A DNA stretch of 64,000 nucleotides, taken from positions 224,001 to 288,000 of the IMG/VR virus record IMGVR_UViG_3300037851_000141; one strand, written 5' to 3'. Below are positions 15,237-42,415 of the stretch, piece by piece. Position 1 is the stretch's first letter; every line of letters begins with the position of its first letter. This DNA is from a virus. Taxonomy: Duplodnaviria; Caudoviricetes. Made by a program: the position numbers and the translations under genes. The notes below the pieces were generated by a model. The model did not search any database, was not told where the DNA came from, and worked only from the letters and a program-made list of their open reading frames with translations.

Positions 15237-16448
15237 TTAGGTGTGAATAAGTGAGTATATTTTACCCGACTTATTTACAATGTCAAGATTACTGTTTCTT
15301 CCATCTGACTTGTTATTGATATTGCTATCAAATTCAGAGGTCTGATGTCCACAGTCGTTGATTTCCGCCAAGCCAGCGGTATATATATTTATTGCGGCAT
15401 TATAGTCTCGATTTAGTGTAAATCCACAAATCTCGCATTTATATGTTCGTTCTTCAACTGGCATCTCGGCTTTAACATGACCACAACTTGAACATGTCTT
15501 GGTTGATGGATACCATTTGTTTACCTTATGTAAGATATTGTCGTAAATATCTTTTTTATAAGATAGCTGTCGAATAACTTTCCCTATACAAGTATCGGTA
15601 GTAGATTTACCATACTTCTTCATCCATGATTTTACAGATAAATCCTCAATTATGATAGCTTGGTTTTCGCTACATAACTGAGTTGTTAACTTATGAGTAA
15701 AATCATGTCTGATATTAGATATGCGAAGATGTAGCTTCGCTACTTTGAGTCTTTGTTTATCTCTATTTTTACTTCCTTTTTGTCTACGACTTAGTTTACG
15801 TTGATACCGTGCTAACTTCGACAAATTGGACTTGAGTGGCATTGGCGAGTGAATCTCATTACCTTGGTTGTCGGTAACGAGAGTTGTCAAACCAAAGTCA
15901 ATTCCTATTTTATTATCAGAAATACGAGGTTTTTGATAACTTCCAACATCAACTGATATTGAAGCGTACCATTTGTCTGCTTTTCTTGAAATTACACAGG
16001 AGTTGATTTTACCTTCGAATCTCAACTTCTCTGTTATTCTTATTTTACCAATAAGAGGAAGTCTGATGTGAGTATCTGATATGCTAAACTTGTCATTTGA
16101 TATATAGAATGTGTCTCGATTTCCACGTTTCTTAAATTTAGGGTAATTTGTTATCTTATTGAAGAAACTTGAGAATGCTGCACCAAGATACGCAAATGCT
16201 TGTTGATTCGCATCTTTTGGACTCTCATATATCCATGGGAATTCAGCTTCTTTTATTTTATTGAATTCTTTTTTGATTAAGTTAGCATTCGGTTTGGGTA
16301 AGTTATTATCAGATTTCCAACTTTCATACATTTTAGTCCACTTACTTAGTCCCCAATTATAAGTAAATCTGGCACAACCACATGCTTTAGCAAGTTGATT
16401 TTGCTGTTCCTTATTTGGTTGGAGTTGTATCTTGTGGCTGAGTATCAT
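15237..16448 (-). CDS. tnpB: TnpB RNA-guided endonuclease
   Basis: HTH start (ARFTYNWGL); RuvC D (IGIDFG), E (IIEDL) and D (RDYNAAINI); CxxC...CxxC zinc ribbon. Confidence 0.92.
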   Translation of the reverse strand: MILSHKIQLQPNKEQQNQLAKACGCARFTYNWGLSKWTKMYESWKSDNNLPKPNANLIKKEFNKIKEAEFPWIYESPKDANQQAFAYLGAAFSSFFNKITNYPKFKKRGNRDTFYISNDKFSISDTHIRLPLIGKIRITEKLRFEGKINSCVISRKADKWYASISVDVGSYQKPRISDNKIGIDFGLTTLVTDNQGNEIHSPMPLKSNLSKLARYQRKLSRRQKGSKNRDKQRLKVAKLHLRISNIRHDFTHKLTTQLCSENQAIIIEDLSVKSWMKKYGKSTTDTCIGKVIRQLSYKKDIYDNILHKVNKWYPSTKTCSSCGHVKAEMPVEERTYKCEICGFTLNRDYNAAINIYTAGLAEINDCGHQTSEFDSNINNKSDGRNSNLDIVNKSGKIYSLIHT

Positions 16449-40989: not shown

Positions 40990-41085
40990 CAGTTGACTCT
41001 ATAAAAAGCTTGACTTCCAAAATATCAGGCTATAATGCGCTCGTCAAACAAAGGCATACAACCCTCAACAAAGGAGAAACCCATG

Positions 41086-41388
41086 CCTGCCGAAACCATG
41101 ATCAAGATGTTCGTTCGTAACCGCCGTGGTCGTCCTTGCGGAATCCTGCTTGGAACCAAGGTCAAGGGTCGAGTACAGATTGGCTACTCTCTCTGTAATA
41201 TGACTCTGGATAAGTGGAACCCCGTTCTTGGACAATCCATTGCTGAAGCTCGTATCGGCAAGGTGAACAAGAAGAATCTCCCGCACTCCGTAGCTAAGGT
41301 GTGGAGCCACTTTGAGGATCGCTGCGCTCGCTACTTCAAGGTAGGTAAGAAGACTGCCAAGAAGCGCGCCGCAAAAATTTCTGCTTGA
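41086..41388 (+). CDS. basic hypothetical protein
   Basis: Start MPAETMIKMFVRN after AAGGAGA; motif IGYSLC...D.W....G..IA..R...RYFK. Confidence 0.65.
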   Translation, partial: PAETMIKMFVRNRRGRPCGILLGTKVKGRVQIGYSLCNMTLDKWNPVLGQSIAEARIGKVNKKNLPHSVAKVWSHFEDRCARYFKVGKKTAKKRAAKISA

Positions 41389-41444
41389 CTTTGAGTAGAA
41401 AAGATATAAAATATAGGTGTTGAACAAGTATATATCTGTGGTAA

Positions 41445-41544
41445 GTCTCGCTCAATAGAGAGTCGGCCAATGTGAATAGATTCCGCGTTGAAGTAACATT
41501 GGCGTCCTTCGAAGGGGATACGCGGAACTCTTATTGGGTGAGAC
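41445..41544 (+). ncRNA. unidentified structured RNA: long closing stem enclosing an H-type pseudoknot
   Basis: 41445-41463 pairs with 41527-41544. GCCAATGT (41466-73) pairs with ACATTGGC (41496-503). TTCCGCGT (41481-88) pairs with ACGCGGAA (41520-27). Small hairpin at 41505-41518. Lies between a promoter (41385-41412) and tRNA-Leu. Confidence 0.7.
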
Positions 41545-41550
41545 AGACAT

Positions 41551-41634
41551 GCCCGAATGGTGGAATTGGTAGACGCGAGGGACTCAAAATCCCTTGGCCG
41601 CAAGGTCGTGTGGGTTCGAGTCCCACTTCGGGTA
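41551..41634 (+). tRNA. tRNA-Leu(CAA)
   Basis: GCCCGAA/TTCGGGT acceptor, AGGGA-CTCAAAA-TCCCT anticodon arm, long variable arm, GTGGG-TTCGAGT-CCCAC T-arm, A73; followed by CTA rather than CCA. Confidence 0.95.
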
Positions 41635-41638
41635 CTAT

Positions 41639-41715
41639 GGGCCATTAGCTCAATTGGTTAGAGCATCCGACTCATAATCGGCAGGTTCTAGGTTCAAGTC
41701 CTAGATGGCCCACCA
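41639..41715 (+). tRNA. tRNA-CAU, most likely Ile2 (lysidine type)
   Basis: GGGCCAT/ATGGCCC acceptor, loop CTCATAA, CTAGG-TTCAAGT-CCTAG T-arm, ACCA end; adjacent tilS supports Ile2 over Met. Confidence 0.9.
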
Positions 41716-41717
41716 AT

Positions 41718-41752
41718 AAAAATCCTCAATCTTAACTGGTTGGGGATTTTTT
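41718..41752 (+). terminator. rho-independent terminator
   Basis: AAAAATCCTCAATC / GGTTGGGGATTTTT hairpin with T-run. Confidence 0.75.
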
Positions 41753-41803
41753 ATTTGACAAACCTCTTAAACACTATATACTCTGCCCAAGAAAGGCGCT
41801 TAT

Positions 41804-42415
41804 ATGATCCGGTTTCTTGGCAAGTTACCTCAAGGGAAGATTTATATTGCGTTATCTGGTGGTGCTGATTCAATGGCAGTATTATCATTTCTAAACAACG
41901 GTAATCGTCAAATTGAGTGTCTTTATTTCAATCATGATACTAAACACGGTCAAGATGCCGAATATTTTGTAAAAGGTTATTGTTCAACTCATAATATTGG
42001 TTTACATATTGGTCAGATTACTAAAGATAAAGAAAAAGGTCAGAGTGAGGAAGAGTATTGGCGTTTTCAGAGGTATGATTTCTTTTCTAAGTTTACTGAT
42101 GCTCCTATTGTTATGGCTCATCATTTGAACGACTGTGTTGAGACTTGGATTTTCACGGCATTACATGGTTCACCGCAATTGATTCCTTATATGAACGGCA
42201 ATGTTATTCGGCCATTCTTAATTACGCCAAAGAGTGAATTTTTACGTTGGAATGAACGGCATAATGTTCCATTTATTCAAGACGATAGTAATTTTGATAA
42301 TGTACATATGAGAAATTATATTCGTAACGTGTTGGTGCCAAATAGTTTACATGTTAATCCTGGTCTTGAAACTGTGATTAAGAAAAAGCTATTGTCTCAA
42401 GCCGTTTCTTCTTGA
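41804..42415 (+). CDS. tilS: tRNA(Ile)-lysidine synthetase, N-terminal catalytic domain only
   Basis: ALSGGADSM, FNH, RYDFF, AHHLNDCVET, IRPFL, DDSN...RNYIRN. Confidence 0.88.
   Translation: MIRFLGKLPQGKIYIALSGGADSMAVLSFLNNGNRQIECLYFNHDTKHGQDAEYFVKGYCSTHNIGLHIGQITKDKEKGQSEEEYWRFQRYDFFSKFTDAPIVMAHHLNDCVETWIFTALHGSPQLIPYMNGNVIRPFLITPKSEFLRWNERHNVPFIQDDSNFDNVHMRNYIRNVLVPNSLHVNPGLETVIKKKLLSQAVSS

Follow-up and report, generated by a model that had tools for sequence, protein, structure and literature searches.

That phage tRNA clusters harbour additional stable RNAs of unsolved function is an old observation, and species 1 and 2 of T4 are the classic case. These two RNAs (rnaC and rnaD, 119–139 nt) are structured, are not tRNAs, lie inside the phage tRNA unit, and are matured by the tRNA-processing machinery. 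HDV-like 'theta' ribozymes are also found flanking phage tRNAs. Among regulatory RNAs, the SAM-I aptamer (P2 loop with J3/4) and the THF-I aptamer (L3 with the junction) are built as multi-helix junctions: a long stem closes the junction, and a hairpin loop locks it by pairing with one of its strands. Y RNAs (YrlA/YrlB, Yrn1, and Yrl1/2 of phage phiLo) often carry tRNA-like parts and are sometimes processed by RNase P. They are about 100 nt in length (80–130 nt) and have a long 5′–3′ stem around an internal domain (PMC4201824, PMC12135203). Those reported lie within 4 kb of a Ro60 gene on the same strand, and the YrlA of M. smegmatis is cleaved by RNase P (PMC4201824). The features by which the Y-like RNAs of phiLo were recognised are the 5′–3′ stem and, enclosed by it, a bulge carrying CGAA (PMC12135203).

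The RNA described here is a 100-nt module in an uncultured phage of about 33% GC that has no near relative in GenBank, the identity of its rIIA being at most 35%. Besides rIIA, the phage encodes an RNA ligase, a QueC-like gene, a CCA-adding-type enzyme, Ro60, and about 26 tRNA genes spread over many clusters, intron-bearing tRNAs among them. The analysis concerns a window of 64,000 nt, the whole stretch of DNA that was presented, which corresponds to positions 224001–288000 of the 331,849-bp IMG/VR record. The module is best filed as another of the extra structured RNAs that are co-transcribed with phage tRNAs. With another case at the head of a tRNA-Leu/tRNA-Ile2 unit, unrelated to that of T4 and more elaborate in its fold, passenger RNAs of this sort would appear to be a recurrent element of phage RNA biology.

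Layout of the tRNA-Leu/tRNA-Ile2 unit

The features of the locus are collected in Table 1. The module occupies 41445–41544 (265445–265544 in genome coordinates), between a sigma70-like promoter and tRNA-Leu(CAA), and the GC content at the RNA locus is 0.43–0.53 compared with about 0.33 in the surroundings, as the first-pass annotation had noted in calling it a GC-richer island. Transcription probably starts near 41419, at GTTGAAC. The resulting unit is a predicted transcript of about 335 nt with three folded modules, namely the leader module and two cloverleaves. The same annotation had the RNA leading the tRNA operon. It does lie directly 5′ of tRNA-Leu, but the phrase is an overstatement, since the two tRNAs here form one unit among the many clusters that hold the roughly 26 tRNA genes.

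Table 1. Features of the module, of its transcription unit, and of the Ro60 gene. Coordinates are those of the window except where marked.
Feature	Coordinates	Strand	Basis or remark
ORF101, 101 aa, basic, 50% GC	41083–41388	+	strong AAGGAG ribosome-binding site
sigma70-like promoter, TTGACT-16-TAAAAT	41385–41412	+	-35 hexamer overlaps the ORF101 stop codon
Mostly unpaired 5′ segment, 26 nt	41419–41444	+	contains the 13-mer ACAAGTATATATC at 41424–41436
P0 5′ arm (bulged A41457)	41445–41462	+	pair probabilities, sequence
H1 5′ strand, GCCAAUGU	41466–41473	+	H1 pair probability ~0.8
L1, GAAUAGA, unpaired	41474–41480	+	nested ensemble
H2 5′ strand, UUCCGCGU, pseudoknot strand inside the 22-nt H1 loop	41481–41488	+	mostly unpaired in the nested ensemble
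L2, UGAAGUA, unpaired, 7 nt	41489–41495	+	nested ensemble
H1 3′ strand, ACAUUGGC	41496–41503	+	H1 pair probability ~0.8
P4 hairpin	41504–41519	+	pair probability ~0.9
H2 3′ strand	41520–41527	+	abuts the P0 3′ arm directly
P0 3′ arm	41528–41544	+	pair probabilities, sequence
Linker, AGACAU, 6 nt	41545–41550	+	between the P0 3′ arm and tRNA-Leu
tRNA-Leu(CAA)	41551–41635	+	ARAGORN, Rfam
tRNA(CAU), probably tRNA-Ile2 (lysidine substrate)	41639–41715	+	ARAGORN, Rfam; TilS-like gene next
Terminator-like 14-bp hairpin and U run, end of the unit	41718–41756	+	whole-transcript folding
TilS-like PP-loop ATPase gene	41804–42415	+	own near-consensus promoter at 41755–41782
Ro60 homologue	~189058–190696 of the genome (G000:C1; L017 5058–6696), outside the window	+	own sigma70-like promoter and terminator

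The tRNA(CAU) is paired with a TilS-like gene, so that tRNA-Ile2 and its lysidine synthetase are probably both provided by the phage. This PP-loop gene is short (203 aa). The same tRNA(CAU)/TilS pairing, with the order reversed and a TilS that is 50% identical, is present in IMGVR_UViG_3300030060_008361 (L006 3001–3702).

Upstream of the unit, the stop codon of ORF101 overlaps the -35 hexamer of the promoter. ORF101 belongs to a family of 317 small basic proteins that share the conserved pattern G..S.C..D..IA..R...P.S...R..Y and match neither Pfam nor PHROG. The AF2 model of ORF101 (pLDDT 88.6) has a beta3-alpha2 fold, and a search of the PDB with this predicted fold gave no match. Nine copies of the ORF101 domain make up part of another protein, P0003, of 1542 aa. 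The one close homologue of ORF101, P0001, is 89% identical and is encoded on a 1568-nt JGI contig, which very probably holds the region corresponding to this locus.

Fold of the module

The core of the fold consists of two perfect Watson-Crick 8-mer helices, H1 (41466–73, GCCAATGT, with 41496–503, ACATTGGC) and H2 (41481–88, TTCCGCGT, with 41520–27, ACGCGGAA). The two are interleaved in the order 1-2-1′-2′, exactly where the first-pass annotation had placed them, and with the hairpin P4 included the order becomes H1, H2, H1′, P4, H2′. The closing stem of an 18-bp scale and the small hairpin that it had described were recovered as the 17-bp stem P0 and as P4 at 41504–19. P0 has a single bulged A (41457) and encloses 65 nt. 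Three of its pairs are G.U (G41450-U41539, U41452-G41537, and G41458-U41532), and 15 of the 17 pairs have probabilities of 0.9–1.0, the exceptions being G41458-U41532 (0.38) and A41459-U41531 (0.70). The register of P4 is ambiguous, as the hairpin can be drawn with 6 bp in the stem and CGAA in the loop, or with 3 bp in the stem and UUCGAAG as a T-loop-like loop.

One strand of H2 lies in the middle of the H1 loop and the other between P4 and the P0 3′ arm. Because the H1 loop is thus paired with a junction strand, the predicted fold is a three-way junction (P0, H1, P4) locked by a loop-to-junction pseudoknot. The H2 3′ strand directly abuts the P0 3′ arm, so that H2 could stack on P0. Both strands of H2 are mostly unpaired in the nested ensemble, which leaves them free to pair with each other, and it is plausible in the modelled structure that H1 and H2 form simultaneously. 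The nested folds are close in energy (-40.3 and -37.3 kcal/mol), and H1 and H2 could also be alternatives. When the full 338-nt transcript is folded, the module folds on its own beside both cloverleaves, and the z-score of the whole unit is -4.6. The loops of the module hold AUA and UUG, the codons of the two downstream tRNAs, which is probably a coincidence.

The nested minimum free energy of the 108-nt core is -39.2 kcal/mol, as against -26.3 +/- 3.2 kcal/mol in shuffled sequences (z -4.0). By a crude additive estimate, the energy with one level of pseudoknot is -47.9, as against -27.0 +/- 3.4 in dinucleotide shuffles (z -6.2), and none of 400 shuffles reached it. When the 101 nt were shuffled 20000 times with dinucleotides preserved, 4 of the shuffles contained two interleaved perfect 8-bp helices. 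The fold is also specific to one strand, with -40.3 kcal/mol on the + strand and -28.7 kcal/mol on the - strand, an asymmetry of 11.6 kcal/mol. Every mismatch in P0 is a G.U pair on the + strand and would read C.A on the other strand. Imperfections confined in this way to G.U pairs of the transcribed strand point to selection on the RNA and not on a DNA inverted repeat. After correction for how many 100-nt windows fit into 64 kb, these signals still stand.

It may be argued that the fold arose by chance and that the structure was never selected. The prediction comes from one sequence, for which the searches retrieved no homologue, and the spot was picked as the most structured of the 64-kb window. 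Interleaved 8-bp helices are not rare per se genome-wide, with 16 interleaved pairs across the 332 kb. The other 15, however, are AT-rich and of low complexity (GC at most 0.34), so that the present case (GC 0.50) is the only GC-rich one in the genome, and each 8-mer of H2 is unique in the 332 kb with the two sitting 39 nt apart. The z-scores of -4.0 to -6.2, the G.U imperfections with the strand asymmetry, and a location exactly between a promoter and a tRNA also count against chance, which we consider improbable. The fold is thus very probably real by these model-based measures, and the module is, for now, best regarded as a well-supported structural prediction from one sequence rather than as a discovery.

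Searches for known families and homologues

Scanning the window with Rfam 15 at the gathering thresholds gave three tRNAs only. A further scan of 41300–41800 (a 501-nt query) at E<=10 placed no match, whether to a small ribozyme or to any other family, within 41415–41550, in line with the earlier remark that hammerhead, twister, and pistol core motifs are absent. Relaxed runs of ARAGORN (-ps80, -ps70, introns allowed) found no tRNA or tmRNA on the + strand in 41380–41550, which bears out the claim that it is not a tRNA. The candidates that were set aside are the following. A tRNA or tmRNA identity is dismissed as no cloverleaf is seen by ARAGORN or RF00005. Hammerhead, twister, pistol, hatchet, and preQ1-III have no Rfam match at E<=10, and reading of the sequence agrees. 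Tandem repeats or CRISPR-like units are not present in the sequence, and a DNA-level inverted repeat is ruled out by the G.U asymmetry.

Homologues were sought at several levels. Blastn with 41030–41550 and with 41437–41550 retrieved none from 50,697 GenBank phage records. No copy of the module came from scans of IMG/VR with a 24-mer of the core, a 26-mer of tRNA-Leu, and an R/Y-degenerate helix pattern, nor from IMG/VR scans with ORF101, with P0002 (its 43%-identical relative), and with rIIA, nor from metagenome scans with ORF101 and with H2′ plus the 5′ end of tRNA-Leu. Scanning GTDB genomes with the 5′ half of tRNA-Leu returned two ordinary bacterial tRNA-Leu genes with no leader module. 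A covariance model, R1, was built from a single sequence, the module itself. It matched only itself in the window and in its own genome, and gave nothing in the record of the TilS relative, in the 595-kb phage LR756511, or in 28 IMG/VR records (~3.6 Mb) with a near-identical tRNA-Ile2 core; the search space of R1 outside its own genome came to about 4.6 Mb of phage records. Judged by these searches, the module is an orphan outside all described RNA families. Several of the large IMG/VR phage contigs that share the tRNA-Ile2 core (L021, L030, L033, L043, and L047) encode a tmRNA, with tags ending in ALAA.

The module as a probable addition to a standard tRNA leader

The other tRNA operons of this phage have the same type of promoter and a common start region, GYGTTGAAMA. 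The 13-mer ACAAGTATATATC of the leader occurs four times in the 332 kb, where about 0.05 copies are expected; besides the one in the window at 41424–41436, copies are found in the genome (G000:C1) at 175782, 198335, and 8111 (-). Three of them lie directly 5′ of tRNA genes, 4–114 nt upstream. The 13-mer is neither a -10 nor a -35 element, and may mark tRNA precursors for processing or recognition.

Two flanking motifs, ACAAGTATATATCTG.GG.AA on the 5′ side and TGAGA-N6 next to the tRNA, are common to other leaders of the phage, which do not have the core of about 93 nt. For instance, the leaders of tRNA-Ser and tRNA-Pro read ...ATATCTG(C)GGCAACTGAGAGTT(CAT), and the tRNA follows directly. In the tRNA-Leu(CAA) leader, ATATCTGTGGTAA is followed by the module and then by ...GTGAGACAGACAT. 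Because both flanks resemble the short standard leader, the core of about 93 nt looks like an addition. Similarly, a tRNA-Leu(UAA)/tRNA-Ile2 operon of IMGVR_UViG_3300044621_001012 (L041 7886–8110, -), with the promoter TTGACA...TATAAT, has a 19-nt leader ending in GTTGAACAAA, with the tRNA directly after it and no structured module. GTTGAACAAA is the same start motif as that of the tRNA promoters in the 332-kb phage. As the Leu(UAA)-Ile2 operon of another phage does without the module, it is optional for this type of operon. On comparison of these leaders, the module appears to be an optional, lineage-specific addition to an otherwise short standard tRNA leader.

An addition of this kind could be a selfish or neutral one, inserted into or grown within the standard leader, with no function and tolerated since RNase P removes it. 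The leader-like flanks, the operon of the same type without the module, the acquired-looking GC-rich island in which it sits, and the fact that no homologue was found anywhere searched would all fit. Nevertheless, the genome has no second copy and the ends of the module do not show the DNA-level features of known mobile elements, while the mismatches of the long stem, all G.U on the transcribed strand, suggest selection at the RNA level, and so low a folding energy is unusual for neutral sequence. A functionless insert is therefore regarded as unlikely.

Proposed making and role of the leader

RNase P makes the 5′ ends of tRNAs, and a cut is thus expected at 41550/41551. Transcription from the promoter at 41385–41412 would make the module the 5′ leader of the tRNA-Leu(CAA)/tRNA-Ile2 precursor of about 335 nt, from which cleavage by RNase P would release a leader RNA of about 130 nt. 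There is no terminator between ORF101 and the RNA, so that the module may also end transcripts that read through from ORF101. In transcripts from the ORF101 promoter, the module would, after the RNase P cut, be left as a fold at the 3′ end of the ORF101 mRNA. A role in cis is the most likely, as a compact end-structure locked by the pseudoknot. Such a structure would make the fragments left by processing resistant to exonucleases and to Rho, and would also isolate the tRNA precursor from upstream sequence that could interfere with the folding of tRNA-Leu. We give this cis reading, which includes a real processed leader, a probability of about 0.5. A simple hairpin would suffice for end protection, however, and a role in cis therefore leaves the elaborate fold unexplained. 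Of the proposals made in the first-pass annotation, an unannotated, pseudoknot-capable leader RNA that is not a tRNA and lies behind a promoter is what stands, and the interpretation is to that extent partly supported; no function is supported, and nothing points to the ribozyme, the nuclease-resistant RNA, or the decoy that it had suggested.

The T4 analogy drawn there is a loose parallel. The rnaC and rnaD RNAs lie 3′ of tRNA-Arg whereas the module lies 5′ of the first tRNA, and they are unrelated to it in sequence and structure. rnaC has a canonical T-arm, an acceptor-like stem, and, unlike the module, no predicted helix between loop and junction. In the T4 tRNA cluster, nothing scored better than E 0.39 with R1.

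Alternatively, the leader could act in cis on transcription, either as an antitermination leader of the put or boxA kind, which would let RNA polymerase read past the terminator at 41718–41756 and on into the TilS-like gene, or as a ligand switch between H1 and H2. The module is promoter-proximal, with a terminator and then a functionally linked gene downstream, the 5′ arm of P0 contains the boxA-like CGCUCAAUA, and the nested folds with H1 only and H2 only are near in energy. The boxA sequence itself is CGCUCUUA. The match to it is, however, weak and located in a stem, the TilS-like gene has its own near-consensus promoter, and no riboswitch family matches. P0 is followed by AGACAU and the tRNA, and the only terminator-like hairpin comes after the second tRNA, so that the module is not a riboswitch or attenuator of the terminator type; with no terminator or U-run directly after the module, there is no expression platform. 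The SAM-I and THF-I riboswitches are alike in architecture, yet the module has no similarity to them in sequence or by model and precedes tRNAs instead of a regulated coding gene. Control of transcription is accordingly very unlikely. Still more improbable is a reading as a self-cleaving ribozyme, HDV-like for instance, whose class would be new or divergent. With the HDV-like ribozymes, 'theta' included, the module shares interleaved helices, a setting next to tRNAs, and a hairpin between two 3′ strands, the arrangement of H1 and H2 with P4 between H1′ and H2′ recalling the order P1/P2/P4. Against this, no Rfam ribozyme model matches at E<=10; the 7 nt (41489–41495, UGAAGUA) between the H2 5′ and H1 3′ strands are too few for P3 and for an L3 that could form P1.1 with J1/4; no CNRA catalytic strand, the single-stranded J4/2 that carries the catalytic C, precedes the H2 3′ strand, which U41519 alone separates from P4; and at its base H1 has G41466-C41503 in place of the G.U of a cleavage site. 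The module is also on the wrong side of the tRNA for processing of a 3′ trailer, and since HDV-like ribozymes cut at their own 5′ end, cleavage would not help in maturing the downstream tRNA.

A role in trans has to be weighed as well. Here the module would be a stable, protein-binding RNA: most concretely a divergent Y-like RNA that RNase P makes from the tRNA precursor and that pairs up with the phage Ro60, or else a decoy for a host tRNA-directed enzyme or a partner of the basic ORF101 protein. The phage encodes a Ro60/Rsr homologue, a 581-aa ORF with TROVE (31–40 bits) and vWA_Ro60 (45.7 bits) domains, and nothing that looked like a Y RNA was seen within about 4 kb of its gene. With its length of about 100 nt, the long end-to-end stem (the 17-bp P0), and the internal domain, the module has the gross shape of a Y RNA, and the CGAA exposed in the P4 loop (UUCGAAG, which is also T-loop-like), the tRNAs next to it, and the cleavage of M. 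smegmatis YrlA by RNase P (PMC4201824) are in agreement with such a partner. On the other hand, the module lies about 75 kb from the Ro60 gene, in contrast to the Y RNAs within about 4 kb on the same strand. Matches of the YrlA model RF02553 in this genome fall on true tRNAs and never on the module, so that YrlA itself is rejected. The motif GNCGAAN0-1G is incomplete, with just UUCGAAG, which sits in the P4 loop and away from the 5′ end; 100 nt would contain CGAA about 0.4 times by chance; and there is no D-arm-like element. For ORF101, the distant homologue in LR756511 has no such RNA alongside. A trans-acting RNA, Y-like or other, is unlikely. Less likely again is the more specific idea that the module is the first of an undescribed class of compact pseudoknotted RNAs, by-products of tRNA processing in jumbo phages that act in trans, most concretely with the divergent phage Ro60. 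If the module does bind this Ro60, the definition of Y RNAs would widen and a new way of making them would be added.

Other observations in the genome

Near the Ro60 gene lie a gene of the CCA-adding/poly(A)-polymerase type (L017 8640–9980) and a radical-SAM gene. Within the window, a 403-aa ORF at 15237–16448 (-) strongly matches the transposase PHROG phrog_506 (E 8.5e-110); it looks to be of the TnpB/IS200-IS605 type, and a guide-RNA region may sit at its 3′ end. Upstream of the tRNA-Ser cluster, at 175640–175814 of the genome (G000:C1), there is another GC-rich leader, with -53 kcal/mol for 175 nt and three mutually competing G/C helices (CCCCAGG, CCCTGGGG, and CTCCAGGG). As these helices compete and a terminator-like hairpin lies just before the tRNAs, that leader may be an attenuator.
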